A stretch of 64,000 nucleotides of DNA from Candidatus Omnitrophota bacterium (lineage in GTDB: Bacteria; Omnitrophota; Gorgyraeia; Duberdicusellales; 4484-171): the NCBI GenBank assembly GCA_021735655.1, contig JAIPGM010000005.1:32001-96000 (forward strand), given 5' to 3'. The notes below the pieces were generated by a model. That model was not told the DNA's origin. It worked only from the letters and a program-made list of their open reading frames with translations, and did no database searches. The translations under genes were made by a program, and so were the position numbers. This document shows positions 47,060 through 61,245 of this stretch, piece after piece (within the stretch, counting starts at the first letter, position 1; each line of letters starts with the position of its first letter).

Positions 47060-48453
47060 AGAAAATAACTATAGTCTATTTATTTTCTTTTTTGATTTTG
47101 TTGACGGTCTACGCTCAAGAAGAACCACAAGAAATCTCCCTGGAAGAATTCATCCAGAAAGCCTGCCGTAAAGATACGGTGTTTCAGTCGATCCTTATTG
47201 ATGAACTAGCCCTCAAATACCGAAAAGCGCTGACCCTTCCGGCTGGAGATTTAGTAGTCTCAATAACCAATCAATATCATACTTTTTTTAATCCCAAAGA
47301 AAACGAAATAGACAATTCCTTTTCCTTAAGTAAATTATTTCCCAACACCGGAACCACAGTCAGCGCTGACTATACTTCTTCGGTTTCAAACAGTAGCCGG
47401 GCAGTTAATTCAGAATTAGATCTTTATATTTCCCAGCCGATCGCCGAGAATGCTTTTGGTAAAGATACCCGCCTATTAGATAAACTTACCGGTATTGAAA
47501 TCGATGTGGCCCAGCATCAAGTCATTGAAGCCTACGAAGACTACCTAGCCTCTTTGGTTCAGACCTATCTTGACTGGTATTCAGCCTACAAAAGCGTAGA
47601 AACAGCTGAAAATTCCTACAAAGTGAATCTGAAACTCTTAAAAAACGTTAAAGAACGCCAGCGTAACAGCATTGCCTTACCAATTGATGTTAATAAAATT
47701 AATGTCCAAGTCCTAGCTAAAGAGGAAAACCTAGTTTCCCTTAAAAATCAATATACCGAATACTTTAATCTGATCAAGCAAGCTCTACGTAGTGATGAAA
47801 ATATAGAACTTAAGCCTTTAGATCCTGATTCTTACGATCAAATTGCAATTGACTTTGACAACGGCTATCAGCAATTCCGTAGCCAAAGCCGAACCTATCA
47901 GATGCTTTTGCTGTTAGAAGAAAAAAGTTCAGTTCAAGTAGCCAGAGATGCTGATAAACTCCTACCATCTATCGACTTAAAACTTGGTTACTTAATAGAG
48001 GGCGATAACCACGGGTTAAGCAATAACCAGAATACGTTCTACGGTAAAATCGAACTAGACTGGCCTTTTTTCGGCCAAAAAGAACAAGCACAGCATGAAA
48101 CCTCAAAAATCGCTCAGCGCAAACAAAAGCTTAATAATCAAAGTACTTATGCTGACCTTTACACTAATCTAAAAAATATTTATGAGGCTGTCGAACGAGA
48201 AAAGAAACTAATCTCCCTGTCCGATGAAAAAATTGGCCTGGCTGAAGCTATCGTCAAAGATGAAACTAAAAACTACTCTTACGGCAAAGTGACCTTAAAA
48301 GATTATATCGATGAAATCAACAAGTTGGAAGATAATAAGTTCACTAAAATTACCCATACCATTCAACTGCGCAAGCTAATCGTCGAATGGCTGCGCTTAA
48401 ACGATCTTTTGATCACTCAAGACGAAACCCTAACCTTAACTGCCCCCGAATAA
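47056..48453 (+). CDS. Outer-membrane efflux protein (TolC/OEP family)
   Basis: Signal peptide plus two OEP-like coiled-coil repeat halves. 4-nt overlap with the RND gene. Confidence 0.65.
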   Translation: MKKITIVYLFSFLILLTVYAQEEPQEISLEEFIQKACRKDTVFQSILIDELALKYRKALTLPAGDLVVSITNQYHTFFNPKENEIDNSFSLSKLFPNTGTTVSADYTSSVSNSSRAVNSELDLYISQPIAENAFGKDTRLLDKLTGIEIDVAQHQVIEAYEDYLASLVQTYLDWYSAYKSVETAENSYKVNLKLLKNVKERQRNSIALPIDVNKINVQVLAKEENLVSLKNQYTEYFNLIKQALRSDENIELKPLDPDSYDQIAIDFDNGYQQFRSQSRTYQMLLLLEEKSSVQVARDADKLLPSIDLKLGYLIEGDNHGLSNNQNTFYGKIELDWPFFGQKEQAQHETSKIAQRKQKLNNQSTYADLYTNLKNIYEAVEREKKLISLSDEKIGLAEAIVKDETKNYSYGKVTLKDYIDEINKLEDNKFTKITHTIQLRKLIVEWLRLNDLLITQDETLTLTAPE

Positions 48454-48485
48454 AAAAGCCTGCCAAGAAATGGCAGGCTAAAAAG
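48452..48485 (-). terminator. Hairpin GCCTGCC-aagaaat-GGCAGGC flanked by A/T tracts; identical copy at 52611..52644
   Basis: A 33-nt block AAAAAAGCCTGCCAAGAAATGGCAGGC(T/C)AAAAAG is repeated twice 4.1 kb apart. On the minus strand the stem is followed by TTTTTT. It is located where the CcdA and TolC-like genes converge. Confidence 0.55.
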
Positions 48486-48601
48486 TTTGTAATTCGAAGA
48501 CTGGCTCCCCCCAATTGGACGAATTTCGAAACTTTCTAAAAAAATTTAGATATTATTATGCAGCCGCTAACAAGAAAAAATTGGACACCATATTAATATT
48601 A

Positions 48602-49297
48602 TCACCATAATGTATTAACAACAGTATAATTCCAAATAAAATAAATCCCAACAAGTATGAATATAATGCCCGTAATCTTCCTCGTGTATAATTCTAGCAC
48701 CGCTACTTTATGGAACCATTTCGAAAAAGAAGTAACACCCGCAGCAATTCCCAAGGCAAATACAACTACAGGAATACCTGTACCTATACCATAGAAAAAA
48801 GGTAAAATAATCCCATGAGGACTCTTTAAAGCAAGAGGGATTAAGCTGCCGAAAAATAGGGCTGCCGCTATTGGACAAAAAGATAAAGCAAACACTGCCC
48901 CAAGAACAAAAGCCCCCCTGGCTCCTGATTCTGACAATGCTGTCTGCTTGTCTTTAGAAATTGAGAATCTCAAAGCATTTATTTTTAGTATATCTAGCAA
49001 AGACAATCCAACCATTAGCAAAATAGGACCCAAAATCTTATTCATGTATTTCTGCAAAAAATTAGCTACTATCGGAATACTAACCAAAGAAGTTATGATA
49101 ATAGATCCTAACACCGCATAGGTAAGCATACGCCCAACAGTATAAGCAAGGCTTGATTGCAATACTTGTTTTGGATGATTTATTCTTTTTGATAGAAATG
49201 ATATAGCCGCTATATTTGTAGCAAAAGGACAGGGACTTATTGAGGTGAGAATTCCAAACCACAATGCAGAAACCAATGGTAGCACAATTTCAATCAT
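48602..49297 (-). CDS. ccdA: CcdA/DsbD-family thiol-disulfide transmembrane electron-transfer protein
   Basis: 231 aa and six TM helices with the ISPCP motif (LTSISPCPFATN) and a second conserved Cys in SFCP. Confidence 0.75.
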   Translation of the reverse strand: MIEIVLPLVSALWFGILTSISPCPFATNIAAISFLSKRINHPKQVLQSSLAYTVGRMLTYAVLGSIIITSLVSIPIVANFLQKYMNKILGPILLMVGLSLLDILKINALRFSISKDKQTALSESGARGAFVLGAVFALSFCPIAAALFFGSLIPLALKSPHGIILPFFYGIGTGIPVVVFALGIAAGVTSFSKWFHKVAVLELYTRKITGIIFILVGIYFIWNYTVVNTLW

Positions 49298-49299
49298 CT

Positions 49300-49716
49300 C
49301 TAAATATCCTTTAAGTAAGTGCTAATTTCAGTTGTGACATAGTTAAAAAATTTCTTTTTATCTCTTACATATTCCCATATTTTGGTAAGTTTCTTATGCT
49401 TTATTTCTTTGCCATCTTCAATGTATGAAATTACAAGAGTTTTTGTGTAGAGTTGGTATTCATCCACGAAATGCTTATTCTCTTTTTCTTCAATATTCAC
49501 TTCCTTAAAGACCAACAAGCCCTTAACCAGCTCGTCTTTAAAATTTTCTTCAATTGCTTCCTTTGCATACTGCTCCATCTTATAACAAGTCACGCAACGT
49601 GCATTGCCGTGAAAATAATACGCAATTATTTTAGTATCTTCACCAAACGCCATTGTTATATTTATTGATAACAATGCCATTAAAATAATTAGTAGAAAAA
49701 TTTTCTTTATAGCCAT
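49300..49716 (-). CDS. Periplasmic thioredoxin-fold protein with a CxxC motif
   Basis: Signal peptide MAIKKIFLLIILMALLSINITMAFG. CVTC redox motif in a thioredoxin-like beta-alpha context (IIAYYFHGNARCVTCYKMEQYAKEAI). Confidence 0.55.
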   Translation of the reverse strand: MAIKKIFLLIILMALLSINITMAFGEDTKIIAYYFHGNARCVTCYKMEQYAKEAIEENFKDELVKGLLVFKEVNIEEKENKHFVDEYQLYTKTLVISYIEDGKEIKHKKLTKIWEYVRDKKKFFNYVTTEISTYLKDI

Positions 49717-49719
49717 GTC

Positions 49720-50676
49720 TTACATTACCAATTGAAGCATATTGAATAAATATCCTGTAATAATTATCGCCACCGTTGTTATTCCAAAAAAGATTGTTAT
49801 TAACTGCAATTTCATTGCTCTCCTTAAGATTATCGCTTCCGGAAAACTCAAGGCAGCTGTTGCCATCATAAAAGCAAGCGCTGTCCCCAGAGGAACACCT
49901 TTTTTAAATAAAACCACCGCTATCGGCACAATTGCCGCACAACTCCCATACATTGGCACACCTAAAATAGCTGCGATAGGCACTGAAAATAGGCCTGTTT
50001 TACTTATTATTGTATGTATTGTTTCTTGGGGGATATAGTTATGGATAAAAGCACCTATACCTACGCCTAATAATACCCACATCCATAATTTTTTTGTAAT
50101 AGATTTGGCCTCATCTATTCCAAAAGCAAGCCTATCTCTTATCCCTTTGTAATCTACCTCTTTAATCACTTGTTTATCTTCTGAGACTAAGCCTTTAACA
50201 AGATATCTCTCTAAGTTCATCTTCCCCAGAATTACCCCTGAGAAAACACCTATTATAATTCCGCTTAATACATAAAAAAGAGTAATTTTCCATCCGAAAA
50301 AACCAAGCATTACTATTACCAAATACTCATTAATCAAGGGTGAAGTTATCAAAAAAGAAAACGTAGCCCCTAAGGGGATACCGGCTTCTAAAAAACTCAA
50401 AAAAATAGGTATAGATGAACATGAACAAAATGGAGTTATTGAACCAAAAAGCGAAGCAAAAAGATTACCGAGAACTTTCTTCTTACCAATCCAATTCTTA
50501 ATCTTATTCTGAGATATGTAAGTTCTAACAAAACCGATGGCTGCTATCATGAAAAACAACAGTAATAGTATTTTAATAGCGTCATACAAAAAGAAATTAG
50601 TTACTCCTGCCAATCTTGACTCCGGGGCCAAGCCAAAAACAGAATAAACTAACCAATCTATTATCGGCTGCAGCAT
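49720..50676 (-). CDS. DUF318 (PF03773) permease with TPFCSCS motif, ArsP-like
   Basis: 318 aa, 8 TM helices. [11 protein letters not shown] matches the signature of the ArsP/DUF318 permease family. Confidence 0.7.
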
Positions 50677-50801
50677 GATTTGCCCTTATCTTTATCCTTA
50701 CTCTCACAACAAGATTTTGTTTTTGCCTTTTTTTCCATCTTTTTATCTAACTTTTCCACTAACTTACAAAAAAAACCTTTCTTCTTTTTTGAATCACTCA
50801 T
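50661..50801 (-). CDS. Unannotated 46-aa Lys- and Cys-rich small protein ([46 protein letters not shown])
   Basis: Own translation; absent from the ORF track because it is shorter than 60 aa. The ATG overlaps the TGA of the DUF134 gene (ATGA). RBS AAGGAGG lies 5 nt upstream. The TAA stop overlaps the permease ATG region (ATGCTGCAGCCGATAA). It carries a C-x18-CC-x10-CC pattern. Confidence 0.45.
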
Positions 50802-51100
50802 TTCTTCCTCCTTGTAATTTTGCAACATCCACCCTCAATCTTTATTGCTTTTATATTTACCAATGCATCACCTATTTTACTATAGGCAGAAGCAATTATT
50901 CTTGAAAAGGTAGGCCGAGATATTTTTAGTTTCTTTGCTGCTGCTTCTTGCGTCAATCCTTCATAATCAGCCAATCTTACTGCCTCAAACTCATCTAAAG
51001 TCATGTGTACCCCGTCTAATTGATTAGATGACTTACACTGTGGCCTGAAACATCTTTCTCCTGGCTCACATTTAACCCATCTGGTCTTTTTCGGTCTCAT
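50798..51100 (-). CDS. DUF134 (UPF0251) family putative DNA-binding protein with sigma-70 region-4-like HTH
   Basis: MRPKKTRWVKCEPGERCFRPQC...LTLDEFEAVRLADYEGLTQEAAAKKLKISRPTFSRII matches the conserved DUF134 core. AGAGGT RBS. Preceded by a 30-bp perfect palindrome. Confidence 0.7.
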   Translation of the reverse strand: MRPKKTRWVKCEPGERCFRPQCKSSNQLDGVHMTLDEFEAVRLADYEGLTQEAAAKKLKISRPTFSRIIASAYSKIGDALVNIKAIKIEGGCCKITRRKK

Positions 51101-51110
51101 AGCTACCTCT

Positions 51111-51140
51111 TTATGTTATGAACATATGTTCATAACATAA
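51111..51140. promoter_or_regulatory. Perfect 30-bp palindrome TTATGTTATGAACAT|ATGTTCATAACATAA immediately upstream of the RBS of the DUF134 operon
   Basis: Verified as its own reverse complement. It ends 11 nt before the DUF134 ATG, adjacent to the AGAGGT RBS. Confidence 0.6.
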
Positions 51141-51161
51141 TATCAGCCAAAACCGCTCATG

Positions 51162-51199
51162 TCAAAAAAAATATCCCGAAGGAAAAATCTTCGGGATAT
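51162..51199 (-). terminator. Hairpin ATATCCCGAAG-gaaaaat-CTTCGGGATAT with T-tract (minus strand) after the MBL-rhodanese gene
   Basis: 11-bp perfect stem. On the minus strand it is followed by TTTTTTTT. Confidence 0.55.
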
Positions 51200-51309
51200 T
51201 AAAAAATAAATATAAGCTCTAATCCAAAACTATTAAAATTATTTACCGATTATTACCTCCCACAACCTGTAACCATGTTAGCTTAATTCTTCTAAATCTT
51301 TCACCTGAA

Positions 51310-52551
51310 TCATTGACTGATTGAACAAGTTCCACCGCCGATTTTCGACTTGTATATCTTTTTGTTATAAGGAAGCTTCATCAGCAACATTCCCATAAGG
51401 CAACTATTAGTTACCCCGGCAAAAATTAAAGCACAAGCAACCCATATTGAAATCCAAATAAAACCACTATGTAAAAAGTAAGCTAAAACTATCCCTAACA
51501 ACATCAAAATTCCAGCAACAACTCTCACTTGTCGCTCCAAAGACACCGAAGACTCCCCTTTGAGGACCGGAAATTTCTGCTTTTGCCAGGCAATTAAGCC
51601 TCCCTTCATTACTTTAACCGAAACAATGCCAGACTGCAATAACATATCAGCAGCCATCGGAGAACGGTTTCCGGTACGACAAAACACTATATACGATCGA
51701 TCAGTCTGACTTAAATCTTTTATTTTAGAATTCAACATATCTATTGGAATATTGATTGAATCCTTAATATGGGACTCATTAAACTCTAATGCTGAACGCA
51801 CATCTAAAAACTTCAAATTAGAGTCTTTAGAAGCATACTCTTTAGCTTCACCAGCTGAAACCATCTCTAAGGTCGTAGCTTCCCCTTTCTGATTAACCCT
51901 AATGATATTATCAATATTAAATGGTTTAGGAAGCTGCTTTGAACGAGCGTCGCTGACAAACTTATCTTTACTGATTTGGCGCATAAAAGGATTATTATTT
52001 TTTTCCTTGGCAATAGTAGATGAAACCTTCCCGTTGTAGTCGTGCGAAGGAAAAATAATAGTGTCTCCCGGAAAATTCTTAAACCTCTGTAAAGTTTCAA
52101 ACATTGCTTCCGGAGACCCATTTTGAAAATCGGTTCTCCCGACACTTCCGATCAGAAGAACGTCACCGGTAAATAATCGACCCTCTCCGTAAATAGCTAT
52201 GGTATCATCGGTGTGACCAGGAGCATATACAACCTTAAACTGCTTTGTTGCTAAAGCTATAGTATCCCCATCTTTAAGCTTTTGATCAACTACTTCGGAA
52301 ATTACTTTTTCGTGCATCAAAACAGGTACTTTAAGCAATTTCTTCAAATTTGCCGCTAAAGAAAAATGATCAGCATGAGTATGGGTATCGATTATATACT
52401 TTAAGTTTAGTTTCTTTTTTTTAAGATAATTGAGATAGTCTTCCTGAAGGCTTATATGTGGATCGATAACTAAGGCTTGATTTTGCGAGCCTAAAATATA
52501 AGAATAGCAACTTCCAGCAGTAAATTGTTTCATTGAAAAATCTTTATTCAT
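51310..52551 (-). CDS. MBL-fold hydrolase (persulfide-dioxygenase/ETHE1-like) fused to a rhodanese domain and a C-terminal two-TM anchor
   Basis: IIDTHTHADHFS metal-binding motif. Rhodanese active-site loop CRTGNRS. C-terminal hydrophobic YgaP-like segment. The architecture resembles CstB-type fusions. Confidence 0.75.
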   Translation of the reverse strand: MNKDFSMKQFTAGSCYSYILGSQNQALVIDPHISLQEDYLNYLKKKKLNLKYIIDTHTHADHFSLAANLKKLLKVPVLMHEKVISEVVDQKLKDGDTIALATKQFKVVYAPGHTDDTIAIYGEGRLFTGDVLLIGSVGRTDFQNGSPEAMFETLQRFKNFPGDTIIFPSHDYNGKVSSTIAKEKNNNPFMRQISKDKFVSDARSKQLPKPFNIDNIIRVNQKGEATTLEMVSAGEAKEYASKDSNLKFLDVRSALEFNESHIKDSINIPIDMLNSKIKDLSQTDRSYIVFCRTGNRSPMAADMLLQSGIVSVKVMKGGLIAWQKQKFPVLKGESSVSLERQVRVVAGILMLLGIVLAYFLHSGFIWISIWVACALIFAGVTNSCLMGMLLMKLPYNKKIYKSKIGGGTCSISQ

Positions 52552-52610
52552 ACCCCCCCTTTTTTTTACTTAATTTAATGATAAAACTTAGTTTCAAAAT
52601 GTCAAGAAAC

Positions 52611-52680
52611 AAAAAAGCCTGCCAAGAAATGGCAGGCCAAAAAGCAAAACCCCTTGCAGTCTCAATGATTGCAAGGGGTT
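52611..52680 (-). terminator. Two tandem hairpin terminators after the small secreted-peptide gene
   Basis: Hairpin 1 at 52648..52680 (AACCCCTTGCA...TGCAAGGGGTT) is followed on the minus strand by TTGCTTTTT. Hairpin 2 at 52617..52637 is the repeated GCCTGCC...GGCAGGC element followed by TTTTTT. Confidence 0.55.
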
Positions 52681-52704
52681 TAAAATTCAACTCACTAAAG
52701 AGAA

Positions 52705-53168: not shown

Positions 53169-54572
53169 ATGAAAAACAAGATAGCTATTATTGGTGCCGG
53201 GGTTGGCGGCTTAGCTACAGCTGCCCGCTTAAGCTTTAAAGGCCACCCGGTAGAAGTCTATGAAAAACTTACCTGTTGTGGCGGCAGAGCCAATATCATA
53301 GAAGACAAAGGGTTTAAGTTTGATACCGGGCCTTCTTTTGTGATGATGCCTGACTTCTTTAAAGAAGTCTTTGACTACTGCCAAGAAGATATCAAAGCTT
53401 ATCTGGACTTAAAAGTCCTGGATAAAAATTATAAAATATTTTATCCTGACGGCGATTCGCTTACTATCCATAAAGACAATCAAAAAACCGAAGCTGAACT
53501 GGAAAGGATAGAACCGGGAAGCTCTAAAGGCTATAAAAACTTTATTGTTGAAACCGGTAAAATCTATAAAGCCGTAGTTCCTCTGCTCTATCGCTGTTTC
53601 CGGCCCCAGGATGCCTTTAATCCGGCTTACTGGAAACTGATCAACAAACTGCATCTGGGAAAATCTTACTGGCAACTGGCAAAAAAGTTCTTTAAATCCG
53701 ATAAACTCTGCTACGCTTTTACCTTTGAAGCTATGTTTATCGGCGTCTCCCCTTTTAAGACTCCGGCCTTTTACAGTGTGATCGGTTACACTGACCAAGT
53801 CGATAAAATCGCTCACCCCATAGGCGGAATGTACCAAATACCTAAAGCTTTAGAAAAAATGGCTTTGAAATTCGGAACAAAGTTTAACTACCAACGTGAA
53901 ATAACCTCGCTAGAAGAAATCAAGGCTGATAAATTTGTGATCAATGCCGACTATTCTTTTGCTCAAAGTAAACTACTGGGAAAAAAGATCCCTGATTACG
54001 ACTATTCCTGCTCAGTGCTCCTGTTCTACTGGGGAATGAAAAAGAAAATACCCAACCTCGAGCATCACAATCTTTTCTTTGCTCAAGACCTAAGAAATAA
54101 CCTGAAAAATATTTTCCAAAACGGTATTGTGGGCGATGATTTTTCTTTTTATATTCACGTTCCCACAGTCACTGACCCCTCACTGGCCCCTGAAGGAAAG
54201 GATATCCTCTATATTTTAGCTCCGGTGCCGAATCTTAAAACATTTAAAGGGGATTTCAAAATCTACGAAGATAGAATAAGAAAAAAAGTTATTGCTAAAA
54301 TTGAATCACTGTGCGGATTTAAAATTGAAGATTCAATTGAAACCGAACACAAGTTTTACCCCGAAGATTTTATAAAAAAATACAGTATACTCTACGGGGC
54401 TACTTTTGGCCTAGCTCACAGCTTAAAACAAAGTGCTTTTTTCAGACCGCCTAACTACACCTCTAAACAAAAAAACATTTATTTTGTAGGGGCCAGCACC
54501 CAGCCTGGGGGCGGACTACCTCCAGTTATTGCCTCATCACGAATAGTGGCTGATTTGATTACTAAGAGCTAA
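53169..54572 (+). CDS. Phytoene-desaturase-family FAD oxidoreductase (CrtI/CrtD-like)
   Basis: IAIIGAGVGGLATAARL dinucleotide motif. 467 aa with a CrtI-like C-terminal region. Confidence 0.75.
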   Translation: MKNKIAIIGAGVGGLATAARLSFKGHPVEVYEKLTCCGGRANIIEDKGFKFDTGPSFVMMPDFFKEVFDYCQEDIKAYLDLKVLDKNYKIFYPDGDSLTIHKDNQKTEAELERIEPGSSKGYKNFIVETGKIYKAVVPLLYRCFRPQDAFNPAYWKLINKLHLGKSYWQLAKKFFKSDKLCYAFTFEAMFIGVSPFKTPAFYSVIGYTDQVDKIAHPIGGMYQIPKALEKMALKFGTKFNYQREITSLEEIKADKFVINADYSFAQSKLLGKKIPDYDYSCSVLLFYWGMKKKIPNLEHHNLFFAQDLRNNLKNIFQNGIVGDDFSFYIHVPTVTDPSLAPEGKDILYILAPVPNLKTFKGDFKIYEDRIRKKVIAKIESLCGFKIEDSIETEHKFYPEDFIKKYSILYGATFGLAHSLKQSAFFRPPNYTSKQKNIYFVGASTQPGGGLPPVIASSRIVADLITKS

Positions 54573-55413
54573 CCCCGATCAAGGCCCTTATTTTCTCAAT
54601 TATTTTTTTGGTGACTTTATCAGGAGTAGAAGCTCCGGCGGTTATTCCGATTCTTTTAGCACCTTTAAACCATTCTTTTCTTAAGTCATTATCTGACTGA
54701 ACCCAATGGCTTTTCTTATTAACTGACCGTGATATTTCATATAGGCGCCGAGTATTAGCGCTGGTCTTTGAACCGATAATAACAACTACATCATTCTTAA
54801 GCGGCAAAATTCGAATCTCAGCCTGTTTTCTTCGGGTAGGAACACAGATGGTGTTAAAAAATTTTAAATCCTTAATCTGAACCCTTAAACTTTTAACTAT
54901 TTTTTTTACCTTCTCGCTATTTTGAGTTGACTGCACTACCATCCCGGCTTTTTTTATTTTTTTGAGTCGGGCTAAAGATAACTTATTGCTAATAATCAAA
55001 GGTTTACGCTTAAGGTTTCCCACAATGCCTTTAACTTCATGGTGATTCTCATCTCCGATAATAATTACCACTCTGCCTTCTTTTTCCAGGCCTTGAGCTA
55101 TTTTATGGATTTCTTTAACCATCGGACAAGTAGCATCAATCAGCTTATAACCTAAGCCTCTAGCCTGCTTCATGGTCTTGAGGCTGCTCCCGTGAGCCCT
55201 TATTAGCAAAACTTTACCTTTACCATTTTTTAATACTTTTACCTTTTTTATTCCTGAGGCGGCAATATCCCGGCAAACATCTTCGTTGTGAACAATATCA
55301 CCGAGCATCTCTACCAAAGGATAATCTCCGGCAGACTTTAAAGCAATGTCTATTGCTCTTTTTACACCAAAACAAAATCCGGCTGATTTAGCTAGATTGA
55401 TTTTAGGTTTCAT
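54562..55413 (-). CDS. ispH: 4-hydroxy-3-methylbut-2-enyl diphosphate reductase
   Basis: AGFCFGVKRAI N-terminus and conserved Cys ligands (C13, C96-like, C195-like positions). 283 aa. Confidence 0.85.
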   Translation of the reverse strand: MKPKINLAKSAGFCFGVKRAIDIALKSAGDYPLVEMLGDIVHNEDVCRDIAASGIKKVKVLKNGKGKVLLIRAHGSSLKTMKQARGLGYKLIDATCPMVKEIHKIAQGLEKEGRVVIIIGDENHHEVKGIVGNLKRKPLIISNKLSLARLKKIKKAGMVVQSTQNSEKVKKIVKSLRVQIKDLKFFNTICVPTRRKQAEIRILPLKNDVVVIIGSKTSANTRRLYEISRSVNKKSHWVQSDNDLRKEWFKGAKRIGITAGASTPDKVTKKIIEKIRALIGVSS

Positions 55414-56273
55414 CGGTATTTTCCTTCAATAATTACCTTGGCTAAGAGCCCCAATTTACCTAAGCGGCTCACCGAAGCCCGCTGGAAAAACAAATCGTAA
55501 TTATTCTTTTCAATCTGATCAAGGATCGCCCCATATACCTTGCTCATCGCACAAACTACAAATCTGGAGCGCTTATCGGTTATCATCTTAATCCCTTCAT
55601 CAGCCAATTGATAGTAATTTCTGGCCCGCCGAATCTGATATTTAATAAAAGTGATAAACTTATCGCTAATTTTTTCTGAACTCAAATCCTCCTGGCTCAA
55701 GCCAAAACTTTTTAGTTCATCCTGAGGTAGGTATATTCTGCCTAAGCCTAAATCCTCTTTGACATCGCGCAGGATATTGGTAAGCTGCATGGCAATACCC
55801 AGATCAACTGCCGGCTGTTTTGCCTTATTGTCCCGATAACCAAAAACCTCAAGCATGATCAAACCCACCACTCCGGCAACTTTATAGCAATAATCGTATA
55901 GCTGCTTGAAATCAGCATAACTTTTCTTTTCCAAATCTAAATGCATACCTTTTATCAATTGATCAAAATAGTTCTTGGGTATATTATATTTATCTACTGT
56001 CTGCTTAAAAGCTAAAAGCAAAGCTTCCCGGGAGCAATCCAAGCCATACGCAGAATTTATCTTTTCTTCAATCCGGCTTAATTTTTTTAAGCCGCCGTTT
56101 GCGTTATCTACGCTGTCGTCGCTTATCCGACAAATGGCATATATACTGTAAGCGGCACGCCTTTTCTCTAAACCTAGAAATTTCGAGGCAAAATAGAAGG
56201 TTTTGGCGTGTTTTTTAGTCAGCTTTTCAGCCTCTTTAAATCCTTGATCAATGACTTTACCCATTGAAACCAT
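55410..56273 (-). CDS. Phytoene/squalene synthase family (CrtB/HpnD-like)
   Basis: Head-to-head prenyl synthase motifs (YAICRISDDSVD and the second Asp-rich region). 4-nt overlap with ispH. Confidence 0.8.
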   Translation of the reverse strand: MVSMGKVIDQGFKEAEKLTKKHAKTFYFASKFLGLEKRRAAYSIYAICRISDDSVDNANGGLKKLSRIEEKINSAYGLDCSREALLLAFKQTVDKYNIPKNYFDQLIKGMHLDLEKKSYADFKQLYDYCYKVAGVVGLIMLEVFGYRDNKAKQPAVDLGIAMQLTNILRDVKEDLGLGRIYLPQDELKSFGLSQEDLSSEKISDKFITFIKYQIRRARNYYQLADEGIKMITDKRSRFVVCAMSKVYGAILDQIEKNNYDLFFQRASVSRLGKLGLLAKVIIEGKYR

Positions 56274-56348
56274 TTTATATTACCGACCCCAAAAAGCCAA
56301 CAAGAATTTACCTTGCTAAATCCTAGATTGCTAACTAAAATATATCTG

Positions 56349-56657
56349 ATGTCAGATTATTTAAAGGTTTTAATCCTTTCAGTTCTGGTTCCTTTTGCCT
56401 GCAGCTTCTACCGGCCACTGAGGTTTTATGAAAATCTAAAAGCCTTGCTTGTTAGTGTAGGCTTAGTGGTCCTGATTTTTGGAGCCTGGGACATCTTAGC
56501 TACAGCCCGCGGCCACTGGCATTTCAATCCTCAAGGAGTAGGATCGCTAAAAATAATTAACTTACCCCTAGAAGAAGTATTATTCTTTATAGTTATTCCT
56601 TTTTGCTGTATTTTTACCTGGGAAGCAATAAACTATATTAAAAATAAAATCCAATGA
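56349..56657 (+). CDS. Lycopene cyclase domain protein (heterodimeric CrtYc/CrtYe-like subunit)
   Basis: About 100 aa with three TM helices and the PLEE(V/F)LFF motif. Start moved to the first ATG, because the ORF-track start is a TTG. Confidence 0.6.
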   Translation: MSDYLKVLILSVLVPFACSFYRPLRFYENLKALLVSVGLVVLIFGAWDILATARGHWHFNPQGVGSLKIINLPLEEVLFFIVIPFCCIFTWEAINYIKNKIQ

Positions 56658-56941
56658 AAGAATATACTCTCTTAGCTATAAGTTCGGTGGTTTTAACTAT
56701 TATCTGGAATAATTTAAGCGGAGTAAAGCTGTTTAAAAAGAAAATTTTTTATTTATTTCTTTTTATAATCTTTCTGTTTAAACTCCTAGTCAATGGAGCC
56801 CTAACTAAAACTATTGTTTTATATAATCCCGATTTCTTTTTGGGCTTAAGACTGGGCACCATCCCCCTGGAAGACTTTCTTTTTGGCTTTAGCATGGTCA
56901 CTCTCTCTATAATATTCTGGGAACAGTTTAAAAAGCAATGA
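56654..56941 (+). CDS. Lycopene cyclase domain protein (CrtYd/CrtYf-like subunit)
   Basis: 95 aa, TM helices, the PLEDFLFGFSMV motif. 4-nt overlap with the preceding subunit gene. Confidence 0.6.
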   Translation: MKEYTLLAISSVVLTIIWNNLSGVKLFKKKIFYLFLFIIFLFKLLVNGALTKTIVLYNPDFFLGLRLGTIPLEDFLFGFSMVTLSIIFWEQFKKQ

Positions 56942-57798
56942 AAAAAATATTTTTTATTCTTATTCTTTTAATATTCTTCTCCCTGCCATTGTTTGCTTTG
57001 GACTGGATAAATCTCCACCAACAGGCCTCGACTCAAACTCTGAGTAAAAATCCTCAATCTGAAAACGAACTATACATCCAGGGATTGGTTTATCTAAACG
57101 AACATAAAGACAATGAAGCTAAAGAGGTCTTCGACAAGCTTATTTCCCAAAACAACAACCTCTTTGAAGCCCGCTGGGGCCTAGCTGAAGTCTTGCGGCG
57201 TAAAAAAGCCTTAAAACAAAGCCAGGAAATACTTGATCAAATAATCCAAACTAATCCCGGTTTCTCACCGGCCTACATAACTCTTGCCTATATAAAGTAT
57301 ACCCAAACTAAATTCAATGAAGCCGCAAAACTGGCTTTAAAAGTCATAAAACAAGGCCCTGAGGCATCCGATATTGATAACTTTAGCCGGGCTTACCTTA
57401 TTTTTGCCGGCTCCAAAGGCTTAATCGCTTCAAAGGGCGGACCGCTCTCAAAACTGATAAATGGAACTCAGGTATTACCGAACTTAAAACGGGCTGAAAA
57501 GCTACGGCCGGACGCTCCGGAAGTCTTATTTGGCCTAGGCAACTTTTATTTCTTGGCCCCTGGTATTGCCGGCGGTAATCTGGACAAAGCCCAAGACTAT
57601 TTGAAACGCTGTCTTAAAAAAGATCCCTCGTTTGCCGATGCCTATGTAAGGCTGGCTCAAGTATATAAAGCCAAAAACAATGCCGAACAGTATGAGCTCT
57701 ATCTTAAAAAAGCAAAAGCCATTGATCCGCTTAACGAACTGCTCAACGATGAGCTCTCGGGAGAATGTAAGTTTAATTGCCAGACAGTAGAAGAATAA
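56938..57798 (+). CDS. Secreted TPR-like repeat protein
   Basis: Signal peptide MKKIFFILILLIFFSLPLFA followed by TPR-like helices. Confidence 0.55.
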   Translation: MKKIFFILILLIFFSLPLFALDWINLHQQASTQTLSKNPQSENELYIQGLVYLNEHKDNEAKEVFDKLISQNNNLFEARWGLAEVLRRKKALKQSQEILDQIIQTNPGFSPAYITLAYIKYTQTKFNEAAKLALKVIKQGPEASDIDNFSRAYLIFAGSKGLIASKGGPLSKLINGTQVLPNLKRAEKLRPDAPEVLFGLGNFYFLAPGIAGGNLDKAQDYLKRCLKKDPSFADAYVRLAQVYKAKNNAEQYELYLKKAKAIDPLNELLNDELSGECKFNCQTVEE

Positions 57799-57808
57799 AC
57801 CCGGTGGT

Positions 57809-58849
57809 TTAAGACTTTAGCAGTTTTTCCGGATATTTAATTAAAAAATCCTTATAGTTGCCGCTGATCGAAGACGAGTTTATCAAAGCTTGTGATCTTT
57901 TAACCAAAGAATTAATTTCTCTCTCAGCATAATCCAAGGCTCCGGATTCAGTAATAATCCGACGCACCTTTACCAAATCGTTTTGGCTTACCTTACTTTT
58001 AGCCAATAATCTTTTTATCGACATCCTAACAGCTTTGCTGCTATTCTGATAAGCTTGCCAGATAAGCAGGGTCTTTTTTGACTCCTGTAGATCAGAAAGG
58101 GTTGATTTACCGATTTTCTGCTCATCGCCAAACATACCTAAAATGTCATCTCGTATCTGAAAAGCCCTTCCCAAAAATATTCCAAACTTAAATAGTTTAT
58201 CGATTTCTTTTTTAGGGGCTCCGGCTAATATCGCACCGCTAGCTAAAGGCGTAGAAAAAGTATAACAAGCAGTCTTATAATCATATATCCGATAAATATT
58301 GTCTTTAGTTATCTTTTCAATCGAATCTATTCCACCCAAAAGCTCAATAAACTCTCCTGAACCAGTGTAGATAGCCGCCTCGATAAATTTTTTTAAAGCC
58401 TTTTCCTTGCGTTCCGGGTCCTCTCTTATCGCCAGAAAAGCTTTTATAGCAATAGCATACATTACATCACCGATAACTATACTTAAATCTTGACCGCTAA
58501 ATTTAACCTTCTTATAGTTTTTTAAATATTTATCCAATAATTTATGCATTGAAGGCTTACCACGACGAGTATCAGACTTATCAATTATATCGTCATGGAC
58601 AAGCATGAAATCATGCATCAGCTCTATAGCCAAAGCACTGCGGTATAATCCGGCAGGTAATTTCTTACTAAATCCCGAATAGCCGACCACAAAAAGTATC
58701 GGCCTGATCCGTTTTCCTTTACGCAGGATAAAATCTTTGATTGATTTAAACAGCAGCGGTGAGATTTTGCTCAAAGAATAGGTTTTATCTATATCGGTAG
58801 CGAACTTTTTAAGCTCAAGCTCAACTTTCTTTTTTATTTTATCAGGCAT
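57809..58849 (-). CDS. Polyprenyl diphosphate synthase (trans-IPPS family, GGPP/FPP synthase-like)
   Basis: First Asp-rich motif LVHDDIIDKSDTRRG and second Asp-rich motif FQIRDDILGMFGD. Confidence 0.8.
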   Translation of the reverse strand: MPDKIKKKVELELKKFATDIDKTYSLSKISPLLFKSIKDFILRKGKRIRPILFVVGYSGFSKKLPAGLYRSALAIELMHDFMLVHDDIIDKSDTRRGKPSMHKLLDKYLKNYKKVKFSGQDLSIVIGDVMYAIAIKAFLAIREDPERKEKALKKFIEAAIYTGSGEFIELLGGIDSIEKITKDNIYRIYDYKTACYTFSTPLASGAILAGAPKKEIDKLFKFGIFLGRAFQIRDDILGMFGDEQKIGKSTLSDLQESKKTLLIWQAYQNSSKAVRMSIKRLLAKSKVSQNDLVKVRRIITESGALDYAEREINSLVKRSQALINSSSISGNYKDFLIKYPEKLLKS

Positions 58850-58871: not shown

Positions 58872-59768
58872 ATGGGCAGTTCAAATATTAAAAACTATAC
58901 AAGAGCCTTAAGGCTTCCCTTTGTCACTGCTAGCCTATTTCCTTTTATTTTCGGATCATTATTGAGCTTCTCCTCCTGGCTAAACTTTATTCTCGGCTTA
59001 ACTTGCGCTATCGCCACTCACCTAGGAGCCAATCTAATCAATGACTATGCCGACTCAAAATCCGGAGCTGACTGGCAAGATACAAAGTTTTACCGCTTTT
59101 TCGGCGGCTCTAAATTAATTCAGGAAGGAGTCTTTTCGGAAAAGTTTTACCTAAAAAATGCGATTTTTGCTTTTTTACTGGCCTTAGCCTGTGTTCTGAT
59201 TCTAGCAGCACGATTTAAAAATTTATCAGTGTTAGGTTATTATTTATTTATCTTGTTTTTGGGCTTTTCCTATTCCCATAAACCGCTTAAATTTTCTTAC
59301 CACCGCCTCGGTGAATTGATTATTTTTCTTCTTTTCGGACCGGCTCTGGTCATGGGTGCTTTATTTATCCAAACCCAACATTTTCCTACCTTGCAAGGTT
59401 TTCTGCTTTCAATACCCTTAGGAATATTTACCACGGCGATTCTTTTTGCCAATGAAATACCTGATTATCTAGATGACCGAAAAGCTAATAAATTTACTTT
59501 AGTCAGCTTGTTCGGACCGAAAAAATCATATATATTTTATTATCTTCTCTTGCTCGTGGGCTTTTCCTCAATAATTATTAATGTTATCCTAGGCTATCTG
59601 GACTGGCCGGCGCTTTTGGCTCTTGCCTTAGCCTTACTTGGTTATAAAGCCGGCAAAATATTAAAAGAAAACTACGCCGACAAAACAAAACTAATAAATT
59701 CGGCTAAAATGACCATAGCTTTACATAGCCTGGTAAGTATAATTTTAATTTTAAGTCTGATCTTATGA
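58872..59768 (+). CDS. UbiA-family prenyltransferase (lycopene-elongase- or MenA-like)
   Basis: NDYADSKSGAD and DYLDDRKAN Asp-rich motifs. About 8-9 TM helices. Confidence 0.75.
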   Translation: MGSSNIKNYTRALRLPFVTASLFPFIFGSLLSFSSWLNFILGLTCAIATHLGANLINDYADSKSGADWQDTKFYRFFGGSKLIQEGVFSEKFYLKNAIFAFLLALACVLILAARFKNLSVLGYYLFILFLGFSYSHKPLKFSYHRLGELIIFLLFGPALVMGALFIQTQHFPTLQGFLLSIPLGIFTTAILFANEIPDYLDDRKANKFTLVSLFGPKKSYIFYYLLLLVGFSSIIINVILGYLDWPALLALALALLGYKAGKILKENYADKTKLINSAKMTIALHSLVSIILILSLIL

Positions 59769-60832
59769 AAAAAATTGTTATTGTCGGTGGTGGCTTTGCC
59801 GGAATTTCAGCCGTAAAAACCCTGGCTAAATCTAAACTGGAATTAGTTCTTATCGATAAAAAGCAAAGTTGGGATTTTCTACCCTGCCTTCCCGATATCC
59901 TCAGCCAAAAAATAAATCCTGTATTTCTTACCGTAAATTTAGCTGATTTTATTAAAAAACTTGGCGGTAAATTTATCAATCAAGAAGTAAAATCGGTAGA
60001 TTTGGCTCAAAAGAATCTTAAGCTAGATTCTCAAGACCTAAGCTATGACTATCTGCTTCTTTGTAGCGGAACTAAAACTAATTTTTTCGGTAACTCGGAG
60101 ATGAAAAGACAGGCACTAAAACTAGACTCAATAGCAGACGCCGAGCTTATCCTTAGCCGCCTAGAAAAAGATGACTTTGATAAAATAGTCGTTATCGGTG
60201 GTGGTTATACCGGAATTGAAATTGCCACTAACCTGCGACAGCGTCAGGCTAAACCGATCAGCATTATCGAAAAATCACCCAACCTGCTCGGTACTCTGCC
60301 TCAATGGATGAAAGATTACGTTAAAGCTAATCTTGATAGATTAAATATTGAAGTCCTGGCTTCTTCTGAAATCAGCCAGATTCCCAAAAGAACTTTGCTG
60401 ATCTGGTCAGCCGGAGTAAAATCAGACGACTACATCTTTAACTTAAAACAAAACAAAACTCCCCAGGGAAGATTAAAGGTGGATAAATACTTAAAAATAA
60501 CCGACAACTGCTTTGTGGCCGGCGACATAGCTAACTTTGATTATCGCAGCCGGCCCTTAAGAATGTCTATACAATTTGCTATTACTCAAGGCAGACTAGC
60601 TGCAAGAAATATCATAAACAGCATCAAAGGCAAACCTCTAACCGAATACAAACCTAAGGATTTAGGCTATGTTATACCCATGCCCAACAACAAATCCTGC
60701 GGTTTAGTCTTGGGCTTGAGAGTAAAAAGCCGCTTAGCCACTTTTCTCCACTATTTTATGTGTATTTTTCGCTCGGAAAGTTTTAAAAATAAGCTGGGAA
60801 TAATTAAAAATCTTATAAAAGGAGGTGCCTGA
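59765..60832 (+). CDS. NAD(P)/FAD-dependent oxidoreductase (type II NADH dehydrogenase / SQR-like fold)
   Basis: Two GxGxxG motifs (IVGGGFAGISA and VIGGGYTGIEIA). 4-nt overlap with the UbiA gene. Confidence 0.7.
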   Translation: MKKIVIVGGGFAGISAVKTLAKSKLELVLIDKKQSWDFLPCLPDILSQKINPVFLTVNLADFIKKLGGKFINQEVKSVDLAQKNLKLDSQDLSYDYLLLCSGTKTNFFGNSEMKRQALKLDSIADAELILSRLEKDDFDKIVVIGGGYTGIEIATNLRQRQAKPISIIEKSPNLLGTLPQWMKDYVKANLDRLNIEVLASSEISQIPKRTLLIWSAGVKSDDYIFNLKQNKTPQGRLKVDKYLKITDNCFVAGDIANFDYRSRPLRMSIQFAITQGRLAARNIINSIKGKPLTEYKPKDLGYVIPMPNNKSCGLVLGLRVKSRLATFLHYFMCIFRSESFKNKLGIIKNLIKGGA

Positions 60833-61245
60833 TGAAAAGCTATGCGACTCTGCCTCTGCGCCTGGCTCTTGGAGCAGTGTTTATTTTTCACGGCCTACAA
60901 AAAGCCTTTGGGCTATTTGGCGGACCAGGAATAAAAGGTTTCTCAGGAATGCTTGCTGGACTAGGCTTTCCTTTTTCGGAAATCATGGCAATTCTAGTTG
61001 CCTACGTTGAGCTAATCGCCGGAATCCTTTTAGTTTTGGGGGTTCTAACAAGAATCTCTTCTCTATCACTTTTAATAATTATGATAGTTGCCCTGCTTAA
61101 AGTCCATCTAGCTAAAGGTTTTTCGATTATGAACGGTGGTTATGAATATGATCTGGTTCTAATTTTGATTTGTCTTTCGCTAATCATCTCCGGAGGCGGA
61201 AAATTAAGTTTAGGCCAAAAACTAAATAAATTAAAAAATCTTTAA
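60832..61245 (+). CDS. DoxX-family membrane protein
   Basis: LRLALGAVFIFHGLQKAFGLFGG N-terminus typical of DoxX. Four TM helices. The start overlaps the upstream stop. Confidence 0.7.
   Translation: MKSYATLPLRLALGAVFIFHGLQKAFGLFGGPGIKGFSGMLAGLGFPFSEIMAILVAYVELIAGILLVLGVLTRISSLSLLIIMIVALLKVHLAKGFSIMNGGYEYDLVLILICLSLIISGGGKLSLGQKLNKLKNL

Follow-up and report, generated by a model that had tools for sequence, protein, structure and literature searches.

A predicted inner-membrane fusion of a persulfide dioxygenase-like domain, a rhodanese and a cysteine-bearing tail in a Candidatus Omnitrophota bacterium

Results

The fusion gene and its transcription signals

On the minus strand of the window, the whole 64,000-nt stretch of DNA that was analysed, an open reading frame with an ATG start lies at exactly 51310-52551 and encodes 413 amino acids (Table 1). 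The product is 100% identical to a deposited protein from a Candidatus Omnitrophica MAG (P0001), named 'MBL fold metallo-hydrolase'. A preliminary description of this DNA had proposed a triple fusion of an MBL domain, a rhodanese and a membrane anchor, and the fusion is real. Pfam annotation found all three domains: Lactamase_B at residues 11-170 (E = 4.4e-19, 69.6 bits), Rhodanese at residues 235-324 (E = 2.7e-17, 63.5 bits), and YgaP-like_TM (PF11127) at residues 337-392 (E = 9.5e-7, 29.3 bits against a gathering score of 25.3). None of the NCBIfam models reached its own cut-off on the fusion protein, and the AlphaFold2 model was of moderate quality (pLDDT 73.9, pTM 0.56). The HxHxDH metal motif and the CRTGNRS catalytic-cysteine loop named in that description correspond to H57-T-H-A-D-H62 and C291-R-T-G-N-R-S297, and alignments revealed loss of neither the rhodanese cysteine nor the MBL ligands. 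The motifs of the fusion protein were all invariant in 20 aligned homologues and are thus not a chance match.

The gene was also correctly placed upstream of a DUF134 operon on the same strand with a terminator between them; the 209-nt spacer contains a hairpin followed by T8. By its predicted signals the fusion gene appears to be monocistronic and to lie outside the DUF134 operon: it has its own sigma-70-type promoter and 3' terminator, and two tandem hairpins ending a small upstream ORF would insulate it from that side. These promoter and terminator calls are consensus predictions, and the counts found were not above shuffled expectation. A search of the window for the DUF134 palindrome (at most 3 mismatches) returned a single site, with none at the fusion-gene promoter. 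Two copies of a 37-nt direct repeat bracket a 4.16-kb block made up of the fusion gene and the DUF134 operon. A riboswitch or sRNA in the spacers was considered and rejected, as Rfam yielded only sub-threshold 'anti-hemB' matches on two terminator copies (28.6 and 24.6 bits against 49.5).

Table 1. Features of the fusion gene and its surroundings (window positions)
Feature	Position	Strand	Basis or remark
Whole ORF, PDO-rhodanese-YgaP_TM-Cys-tail fusion protein	51310..52551	minus	413 aa + stop
PDO-like MBL domain, residues ~11-222	51886..52521	minus	Pfam Lactamase_B, phmmer, Foldseek
Metal motif H57-T-H-A-D-H62	52366..52383	minus	wider T56-H-T-H-A-D-H-F-S64 fits type I/II PDO consensus (PMC6060420)
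Rhodanese domain, residues 235-324	51580..51849	minus	Pfam Rhodanese; aligned to BpPRF rhodanese domain
Catalytic loop C291-R-T-G-N-R-S297	51661..51681	minus	Cys in all 80 relatives; BpPRF has C-R-A-G-G-R-S
YgaP-like two-helix membrane hairpin, residues 337-392	51376..51543	minus	PF11127, 2mpn, hydropathy, AlphaFold2 helices
Lys-rich cytoplasmic tail (predicted), residues 393-413, ending G-G-G-T-C409-S-I-S-Q	51313..51375	minus	C409 conservation, relatives
C409 codon	51325-51327	minus	
Predicted sigma-70-type promoter of fusion gene, TTGACA-16-TATCAT	52578..52605	minus	11/12 consensus matches; consensus match only
Two tandem terminator hairpins ending upstream small ORF	52616..52681	minus	-38.6 kcal/mol, z = -6.5
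Predicted intrinsic terminator 3' of fusion gene	51170..51200	minus	12-bp stem + T8, -16.7 kcal/mol, z = -5.8
Predicted DUF134-operon promoter, TTGACA-17-TATTAT	51137-51165	minus	context, outside fusion gene
Perfect 30-nt palindrome before DUF134	51111-51140	minus	22-nt palindrome conserved in L004
37-nt direct repeat, copy 1 (terminator hairpin), after ArsG-like gene	48449..48485	minus	
37-nt direct repeat, copy 2, upstream of fusion gene	52608..52644	minus	95% identical
DUF134 gene, downstream of fusion gene	50798-51100	minus	209-nt spacer between
Neighbouring operon: DUF134 regulator, Cys-rich peptide, ArsP_1 permease, ArsF-like CxxC thioredoxin-fold protein, ArsG-like DsbD_2 membrane protein	48602..51100	minus	

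The MBL domain

Phmmer matches to the persulfide dioxygenases (PDOs) 9rhq, 4ysb and 4chl covered residues 10-221 of the fusion protein, with E-values of 1.5e-40 for 9rhq (142.5 bits), 1e-37 for the Myxococcus PDO (4ysb) and 4e-31 for human ETHE1 (hETHE1, 4chl). The domain aligned end to end with the latter two, with target-normalised Foldseek TM-scores of 0.85 (4ysb) and 0.83 (hETHE1). The iron ligands H57, H113 and D130, equivalent to H79/H135/D154 of hETHE1 and H57/H113/D130 of AcPDO, were invariant in 20 close relatives and kept in at least 78 of 80 locus-derived relatives. The second sphere consists of D61/H62, R139 (R163 in hETHE1), D141, H170 and Y172 (Y197 in hETHE1); from R139 onwards these residues were kept in nearly all 80 relatives, the one exception being D141N in L065. 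Mutagenesis of AcPDO identified H57, H113, R139, D141, H171 and Y173 as essential (PMC6060420), and the fusion protein has all six at the equivalent positions. The PDO-specific segments G-R-T-D-F-Q-x-G and H-D-Y, which hETHE1 and the Myxococcus PDO share, were invariant in the aligned homologues.

The preliminary description had called the domain 'ETHE1/CstB-type'. The PDO motif of types I and II, T-H-x-H-A-D-H-x-[T/S], keeps a third His where type III has F/Y (PMC6060420). This His is retained here, so the ETHE1 part of the label holds and the CstB/type III part does not. These residues identify the MBL domain as a mononuclear-iron persulfide dioxygenase domain that is ETHE1/type I-like. One type I feature is absent, the glutathione-binding Arg (R190 of AcPDO, 'NPR' motif), and the fusion protein has F189 there. 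Position 189 was F or Y in 27/27 close members and hydrophobic (L/I/W/F) in distant three-domain members; it was Arg in all 26 two-domain proteobacterial relatives and in every aligned PDO from the PDB. Because this Arg is lost, the physiological persulfide is probably something other than glutathione persulfide.

Rhodanese, membrane hairpin and tail

The rhodanese could be read as an arsenate reductase of the Cdc25/Acr2 type. This reading was rejected on two counts: the loop is of the BpPRF type, C-R-x-G-x-R-S, rather than HC-X5-R, and relatives do not keep the linkage to ars-named genes.

The two-TM hydrophobic tail claimed earlier was borne out by hydropathy, by AlphaFold2 helices at residues 338-360, 362-381 and 384-391, and by alignment to the NMR-solved TM domain of E. 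coli YgaP (2mpn; E = 4.5e-12, 63 residues aligned). Strong hydrophobicity is confined to residues ~343-392; outside them the Kyte-Doolittle mean over 19 residues peaks at 1.29, and no hydrophobic segment is present at the N-terminus. Within the hairpin, the intramembrane C384 is the equivalent of YgaP Cys159 in TMH2 (PMC4730233). Lys and Arg together follow a positive-inside pattern, with 4 ahead of TM1, none in the loop and 5 in the tail. The hairpin is predicted to return the chain to the cytoplasm, with the enzyme on the cytoplasmic face of the inner membrane.

The tail has a pLDDT of 27-41 and is thus modelled as disordered; its C409 was conserved in at least 90% of 20 aligned homologues. 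A disordered cytoplasmic tail with 1-4 copies of G-G-[T/G/A]-C-[A/S] was present in 54/54 full-length three-domain relatives, and the motif is repeated 2-4 times in members from Planctomycetota and Methylomirabilota. The first tail Cys lies 9-16 residues past P[YW]N in three-domain relatives, with one outlier at 5. A CAAX-like reading of ends such as C-S-I-S-Q and C-A-M-G was dismissed, because distant members carry the motif internally and in several copies. That the tail Cys is a PDO-specific feature proved only partly true: 72 of 117 PDO-less YgaP-like proteins (62%) also have a Cys-bearing tail.

Relatives

Clusters with the three-domain architecture number more than 120 at ≥63% identity and about 20 at 50% identity, and the architecture is conserved across Omnitrophota (including Candidatus Omnitrophus magneticus), Planctomycetota, Schekmanbacteria and Methylomirabilota. 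Literature searches on a membrane-anchored PDO-rhodanese-YgaP/DUF2892 architecture found no description; the family, though common, is unstudied. In 13 distant three-domain loci a divergent ArsR/SmtB-family gene lies 60-200 bp upstream. Its assignment as a BigR/SqrR persulfide sensor was rejected as not specific, since CzrA and SmtB score better. Contigs of relatives carry anaerobe-type genes, such as PFOR and ferredoxin beside P0004, yet PDOs need O2; this observation speaks against a PDO function.

Comparison with known systems

The best whole-length match, and the top Foldseek match, was BpPRF of Burkholderia/Paraburkholderia phytofirmans (PDB 5ve3-5ve5), which aligned with query residues 13-325 in a single alignment (E = 1.5e-34, ~28% identity). 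The two proteins share the order PDO then rhodanese, a type I-like PDO, the iron ligands and the rhodanese loop type. However, BpPRF is soluble and has neither the TM hairpin nor the Cys tail, it keeps the 'NPR' Arg in place of F189, and it has S-T-Y-T-Y where the fusion family has S-C15-Y-S-Y. The domain packing of our AlphaFold2 model also differs from that of BpPRF (rmsd ~12 Å over the whole length). E. coli YgaP (2mpn, 2moi, 5hbl) has the rhodanese followed by the PF11127 hairpin and its TMH2 cysteine, but it lacks a dioxygenase domain, has no Cys tail beyond its terminal P-W-N-Q-R, and is paired with the regulator YgaV; no adjacent YgaV-type ArsR-family regulator was found in the window. 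Human ETHE1 and the Myxococcus PDO are single-domain, soluble and glutathione-persulfide-specific enzymes that have the 'NPR' Arg where the fusion protein has Phe.

Staphylococcus aureus CstB (type III PDO-Rhod-Rhod, 3r2u) is likewise a PDO-rhodanese fusion for persulfide detoxification. It has two rhodanese domains, no membrane anchor and the type III F/Y, whereas the fusion protein has one rhodanese and keeps H62. The match was weak (E = 1.2e-15), and the internal C-G loop of CstB gave no alignment to the fusion protein. The Blh/BigR-operon sulfur transferase-dioxygenase (NF040641) matched partially, over the C-terminal PDO half (E = 2e-27, 96 bits against a cut-off of 625); there the sulfurtransferase is N-terminal, the opposite domain order.

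Discussion

Processing of sulfide or persulfide, as the preliminary description suggested, is the best reading of the gene, its nearest solved relatives being persulfide dioxygenases and the PDO-rhodanese fusion BpPRF. We consider it likely, on sequence grounds, that the product is a monocistronically encoded inner-membrane enzyme of the cytoplasmic face that removes sulfane sulfur (persulfides, polysulfides). By analogy with BpPRF and CstB, thiosulfate, polysulfide or thiol persulfides would donate sulfane sulfur to the rhodanese Cys, and a persulfide would be delivered to the Fe(II) site, where O2 would oxidise it to sulfite. The sulfite would then leave the enzyme, or form thiosulfate with another sulfane sulfur bound to C291. 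The hairpin would put the enzyme where hydrophobic sulfur species and the products of quinone-linked sulfide oxidation arise, and, if YgaP is a guide, it may also form dimers and bind the anionic product.

Two other readings concern the division of labour between the domains. The MBL domain could be an O2-independent hydrolase, glyoxalase II-like or acting on thioesters or persulfides, that works anaerobically with the rhodanese; the hosts look anaerobic, all seven glyoxalase II metal-ligand positions are filled (H57, H59, D61, H62, H113, D130, H170), and the best NCBIfam match is GSH_gloB. That match, however, reached 113.9 bits against a cut-off of 200.8, and HAGH_C gave 17.1 against a gathering score of 25. 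PDOs outscored glyoxalases by ~65-90 bits (55.6 bits for E. coli GloB, 6rz0, against 142.5 for 9rhq), and the invariance of the two PDO-specific segments also weighs against a hydrolase, which we regard as very improbable. The protein could instead be in essence a YgaP-type membrane sulfurtransferase or anion handler (thiosulfate:cyanide transfer, thiocyanate export) with an accessory or regulatory MBL domain, given that its rhodanese-PF11127 module is that of E. coli YgaP and that Cys-bearing tails occur in so many PDO-less YgaP-like proteins. Yet the PDO catalytic residues are conserved across more than 50% sequence divergence, which argues for an active dioxygenase, and export by YgaP is itself still hypothetical (PMC4730233). 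We give this reading scarcely any credence.

A wider reading combines the fusion protein with the DUF134/ArsP_1/ArsF-like/ArsG-like operon in one sulfur/thiol (or metalloid) stress module, much as the preliminary description had proposed a 'sulfur/thiol-stress island'. In its favour, the fusion gene lies next to the operon on one and the same strand, the two repeat copies enclose just these transcription units, and CxxC and Cys-rich motifs occur in the proteins encoded downstream. The synteny search, in which the fusion protein and nine window proteins were compared by phmmer with six-frame ORFs of 80 genome loci and neighbour ORFs were clustered, recovered the order fusion gene, DUF134, ArsP_1, ArsF-like, ArsG-like in L004, where the orthologue is 64% identical and the flanking genes differ. 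Among 28 loci at ≥61% identity, L004 alone keeps this order. The nearest two relatives, at 74% and 71% identity, instead have a cold-shock gene and an Rrf2 gene after the fusion gene, and the DUF134 genes near the fusion gene in L015 and L024 lie among unrelated Fic, LexA and ImuB genes. A Pfam scan of the 100 genes lying closest to the fusion gene in the 30 loci with the best matches (45-70% identity) found no family more than 3 times. The predicted terminator and separate promoter divide the two units, and the DUF134 operator is not shared. With no conserved partner among close relatives, the operon or island is rejected as a general property, and a common module is unlikely even at this locus; the link to the DUF134 operon is mostly a local accident. 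The window contained no SQR, sulfite exporter or persulfide-sensing regulator near the fusion gene, and a scan of ORFs of ≥120 aa in the 25-48 kb and 53-63 kb regions found no sulfur genes; the carotenoid stretch at 55410-58849 in the second region was read by eye only. A Pyr_redox_2 gene at 59765-60832, considered as an SQR, is NDH-2/FSP1-like instead.

For the tail we tentatively suggest, as a possibility to which we attach rather low confidence, that G-G-G-T-C409 is a built-in swinging-arm sulfur carrier: C291 would load the tail Cys, and the tail persulfide would be oxidised at the iron site. Such an arm could be likened to the C-terminal GGCGG arm of SoxY or to the C201-G202 loop of CstB. 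CstB offers a precedent for a substrate Cys borne by the protein itself: there, an internal Cys on a mobile loop mimics glutathione (PMC12934615). An enzyme of this kind would be glutathione-independent, which would explain the Arg loss in tail-carrying lineages. The unequal occurrence of the tail Cys (54/54 against 72/117), the nearly fixed spacing of the first Cys, 11-13 residues past the hairpin, the repeats and the predicted disorder leave room for such an arm. Cys tails also occur without a PDO domain, and P0137, from an independent three-domain lineage, retains 'NPR' together with a Cys tail; both observations speak against an exclusive link.

To our knowledge, the PDO-rhodanese fusions studied so far are only soluble enzymes of glutathione- or bacillithiol-producing aerobes. 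The present family would place this chemistry on the membrane, in little-studied and mostly anaerobic or oxic-anoxic-interface lineages, and couple it with loss of the glutathione-binding residue and gain of an obligatory Cys tail. If the tail is a substrate carrier, it would be a second, independent case of the 'self-substrate' mechanism lately proposed for CstB, and would help to explain the disposal of sulfane sulfur in organisms without glutathione. For annotation, the adjacent DUF134 operon should not be read as functionally linked, and thousands of proteins now called 'MBL fold metallo-hydrolase' could be given a specific name.

Domain architecture and predicted membrane topology

A triple fusion of a metallo-beta-lactamase-fold (MBL) domain, a rhodanese and a two-helix membrane anchor, to be checked by domain annotation, had been proposed in the preliminary description. 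It was confirmed: both named motifs are present, and Pfam placed three domains above their gathering scores, Lactamase_B at residues 11-170 (E = 4.4e-19), Rhodanese at 235-324 (E = 2.7e-17) and YgaP-like_TM (PF11127) at 337-392 (29.3 bits against a gathering score of 25.3). Coordinates are collected in the table.

Features of the fusion gene and its surroundings
Feature	Position	Strand	Remark
Fusion gene	51310-52551	-	ATG-started ORF, 413 aa; stop codon included
H57-T-H-A-D-H62 motif	52366-52383	-	MBL domain
C291-R-T-G-N-R-S297 loop	51661-51681	-	rhodanese domain
Spacer, fusion gene/DUF134 gene	51101-51309	-	hairpin and T8, predicted promoter, palindrome
Palindrome	51111-51140		perfect, 30 nt
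37-nt direct repeat (terminator hairpin and T-run)	48449-48485 and 52608-52644		copies 95% identical
Sub-threshold Rfam anti-hemB sRNA matches	48450-48531; 52609-52677	-	24.6 and 28.6 bits; gathering score 49.5
ArsF-like and ArsG-like genes	48602-49716	-	NCBIfam matches
Small Lys-/Cys-rich ORF	50661-50828	-	no Pfam or NCBIfam match
ORF of 51 aa	52705-52860	-	no family match
Carotenoid/isoprenoid cluster	53169-58849
Putative quinone-linked genes	58872-61245	+

A 19-residue Kyte-Doolittle mean of at least 1.6 was reached only by the hydrophobic tail segment, which has four Lys/Arg residues preceding it, none in its short turn and five following. The AlphaFold2 (AF2) model contains helices at 338-360, 362-381 and 384-391, and the segment aligned over 63 residues with the NMR transmembrane domain of E. 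coli YgaP (2mpn, E = 4.5e-12). Since hydropathy over the whole ORF revealed no hydrophobic segment at the N-terminus, a cytoplasmic location is expected for the C-terminus as well as for the catalytic domains, as in YgaP (PMC4730233).

Identity of the MBL domain

Persulfide dioxygenases (PDOs) were the best matches among all PDB sequences: 9rhq (1.5e-40), Myxococcus 4ysb (9.8e-38) and human ETHE1 (4e-31), with the Burkholderia PDO-rhodanese fusion BpPRF covering residues 13-325 in a single alignment (1.5e-34). The glyoxalase II enzymes 1xm8 (76 bits) and E. coli GloB (56 bits) scored far below these. BpPRF again came first in a Foldseek search with the AF2 model (E = 4e-26), and target-normalised TM-scores were 0.85 for 4ysb and 0.83 for ETHE1. 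No NCBIfam model reached its cut-off for the protein (GSH_gloB, 113.9 versus 200.8; Blh, 96 versus 625).

Type I and II PDOs share the motif T-H-x-H-A-D-H-x-T/S, type III enzymes lack its third His, and mutagenesis of AcPDO identified H57, H113, R139, D141, H171 and Y173 as essential (PMC6060420). The fusion protein carries T56-H-T-H-A-D-H-F-S64, H113, D130, R139, D141, H170 and Y172, and by these residues its MBL domain is therefore classified as ETHE1/type I-like, like that of BpPRF and not CstB/type III. Of the earlier 'ETHE1/CstB-type' label the first half thus holds and the second is dropped. Loss of metal ligands, named beforehand as speaking against the call, was not seen; the motif and active-site positions were invariant in 20 close homologues and kept in nearly all of 80 genome-derived relatives. 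A family-specific residue, C15 (G-S-C-Y-S-Y), takes the place of S-T-Y-T-Y in type I PDOs, its alignment being ambiguous between ETHE1 C34 and the adjacent Thr. All relatives keep it, two-domain ones included, with the sole exception of locus L030, where the reading frame is disrupted and the HxHxDH motif is incomplete too.

A lost arginine and a cysteine tail

The glutathione-binding Arg of the type I 'NPR' motif (AcPDO R190) is Phe in the fusion protein (N187-P188-F189). Position 189 was F or Y in 27/27 close members and L, I, W or F in distant three-domain members, against Arg in 26/26 two-domain proteobacterial relatives and every aligned PDB PDO.

After the hairpin-terminal P-[Y/W]-N, all 54 complete three-domain proteins had a short Gly/Ala/Lys-rich tail with the motif G-G-[T/G/A]-C-[A/S]-[A/V/I/M]. 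It contained one Cys in 27 proteins, two in 8, three in 15 and four in 4, the first lying 9-16 residues past the anchor (mostly 11-13; one outlier at 5). The fusion protein ends in K-I-G-G-G-T-C409-S-I-S-Q, and since pLDDT there is 27-41 the tail is modelled as disordered. Together, the Cys tail and the lost Arg suggest a physiological persulfide other than glutathione persulfide. One could further read the tail Cys as a swinging-arm substrate carrier. CstB offers a precedent, an internal Cys-Gly loop that mimics glutathione and is self-S-sulfonated (PMC12934615), to which the tail Cys may be likened. We nevertheless consider a carrier role unlikely, because the tail is merely enriched with PDO and because P0137, from an independent three-domain lineage, keeps 'NPR' and has the tail as well.

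The tail Cys proved enriched in PDO-containing proteins but not specific to them: it occurred in 72 of 117 PDO-less Rhod+PF11127 proteins (62%) and was missing from the other 45. In E. coli YgaP and in protein P0245 the chain stops right after the hairpin anchor. Two permuted relatives were also observed. P0154 (639 aa) comprises Rhod, the PF11127 hairpin, a Cys-rich linker, a type III PDO (HPHADF) and two more Rhod domains; P0144 (314 aa) has an N-terminal Cys-rich domain, taken to be C_GCAxxG_C_C-like, then Rhod, hairpin and Cys tail. Different redox domains are thus found joined to the Rhod-hairpin-Cys module.

Distribution and proposed mechanism

The protein is already in databases: an entry from a Candidatus Omnitrophica MAG (109,460-base contig), with the generic name 'MBL fold metallo-hydrolase', matches it at 100% identity. 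Of the clusters formed at 90% identity, the best 120 were 63-75% identical to it and 407-430 aa long, nearly all with the same three Pfam domains; an exhaustive HMMER search of 1.84 billion representatives yielded about 20 clusters at 50% identity that have all three domains at full length. When each species was represented by one genome, full-length matches with three domains came from Omnitrophota (Candidatus Omnitrophus magneticus, L014, among them), Planctomycetota/Phycisphaerae, Schekmanbacteria, Methylomirabilota and one Thermoanaerobaculia MAG, and Proteobacteria contributed only two-domain relatives with a differing rhodanese loop, C-E-F-G-K-I-S. A full-text literature search found no published description of the PDO-rhodanese-hairpin architecture. 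The fusion protein is a membrane-anchored, Cys-tailed variant of the known PDO-rhodanese fusion type without the 'NPR' Arg, and is new as a variant.

Judged by its sequence, the protein combines the active site of an iron-type PDO, the catalytic Cys of a rhodanese, a hairpin of the YgaP type, in which C384 is the intramembrane counterpart of YgaP C159, and a Cys conserved in the tail. By analogy with BpPRF, CstB and YgaP, sulfane sulfur would be caught on C291 and a persulfide oxidised by O2 at Fe(II), giving sulfite or thiosulfate. The anchor would put the enzyme close to a source of hydrophobic sulfur species, and might also serve dimerisation and anion handling. The PDO step would need a supply of O2 in hosts that are apparently anaerobic; PFOR and ferredoxin genes lie close to that of the relative P0004.

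The host lineage is usually described as anaerobic, and the carotenoid/isoprenoid cluster is unexpected in such a lineage and relevant to host exposure to O2 or light. Pfam and NCBIfam both confirmed its CrtI; the names given to IspH, phytoene synthase, a polyprenyl synthetase and two lycopene-cyclase halves come from reading translations only. Beyond it, about 7 kb away from the fusion gene, genes for a MenA-like prenyltransferase, an NDH-2/FSP1-like flavoprotein (not SQR) and a DoxX membrane protein stand in a row and suggest a quinone-linked module. In a few Omnitrophota a fused MsrA-MsrB methionine sulfoxide reductase (L001, L010, L034) or a rubrerythrin-like gene (L005) adjoins the fusion gene, which hints at an oxidative-stress context, although the association is not conserved.

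Predicted transcription units and the adjacent DUF134 operon

The terminator described between the fusion gene and the DUF134 gene was recovered as a 12-bp stem followed by T8 (-16.7 kcal/mol, z = -5.8). The same spacer holds a predicted promoter, TTGACA-17-TATTAT, and, between its -10 box and the DUF134 start codon, the palindrome (TTATGTTATGAACAT joined to ATGTTCATAACATAA), probably an operator through which the DUF134 HTH protein controls its own gene. Its 22-nt core is kept at the same position in L004 (2746-2767), the locus of a 64%-identity relative. Two tandem terminator hairpins and a predicted promoter, TTGACA-16-TATCAT, lie 5' of the fusion gene; its own promoter and the terminators on either side predict a monocistronic gene.

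The preliminary description had joined the fusion gene and the DUF134 operon into a sulfur/thiol-stress island, a proposal that found little support. Within the window, only the 37-nt repeat (GCCTGCCATTTCTTGGCAGGC and T-run) hints at a physical unit, its copies flanking exactly these two transcription units over 4.16 kb. It occurs exactly twice in the 64-kb window and in none of 84 fetched related loci, and may be the scar of an insertion or rearrangement. Against a unit, the palindrome occurs only once in the window, a terminator and separate predicted promoters divide the two units, and phmmer searches with the neighbouring proteins showed that the full order PRF (the fusion gene), DUF134, ArsP_1, ArsF-like, ArsG-like recurs at a single locus, L004. 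There the flanking genes differ, and an extra Thioredoxin_3 gene downstream of the permease replaces the Cys-rich peptide. At two other loci a DUF134 gene, unrelated, lies 1.5-2.7 kb off amid Fic, LexA and ImuB genes, and the genes that follow in the pair of relatives nearest in sequence (74% and 71% identity) are a cold-shock and an Rrf2 gene. Among the 100 nearest neighbour genes of 30 loci no Pfam family appeared more than three times. We take the adjacency to be lineage-specific, perhaps the outcome of a shared rearrangement; it does not show that the two units work together.

The distant loci of Planctomycetota and Methylomirabilota usually have a divergent ArsR/SmtB-family gene as upstream neighbour (13 loci), considered as a BigR/SqrR type and rejected as not specifically BigR/SqrR-like. 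In three Planctomycetota loci (L035, L041, L044) the three-domain gene is followed, 160-600 bp downstream, by another PDO-rhodanese paralogue that is more divergent, and has a SulP-type transporter and a divergent gene of the ArsR family upstream.

Within the DUF134 operon, NCBIfam named a 'nitroreductase subunit ArsF family' protein (110 bits versus 60) and an 'aminobenzylarsenical efflux permease ArsG' (273 versus 200). These arsenical names may over-specify function: the former looks like a signal-anchored CxxC thioredoxin-fold protein (C-V-T-C), the latter like a CcdA/DsbD_2-type membrane thiol-disulfide transporter. The small Lys-/Cys-rich ORF (C, CC, CC motifs) likely starts at ATG 50799-50801, which overlaps the DUF134 stop (ATGA) after AGGAGG, giving a 46-aa product. 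The anti-hemB matches on the repeated terminator regions most likely reflect terminator-hairpin similarity only. The 51-aa ORF has a signal-peptide-like N-terminus, a Gly/Pro-rich end (GNGPGPAPNSGDGIPDGPGW), its own promoter (TTGACA-16-TAAAAT) and two tandem terminators.
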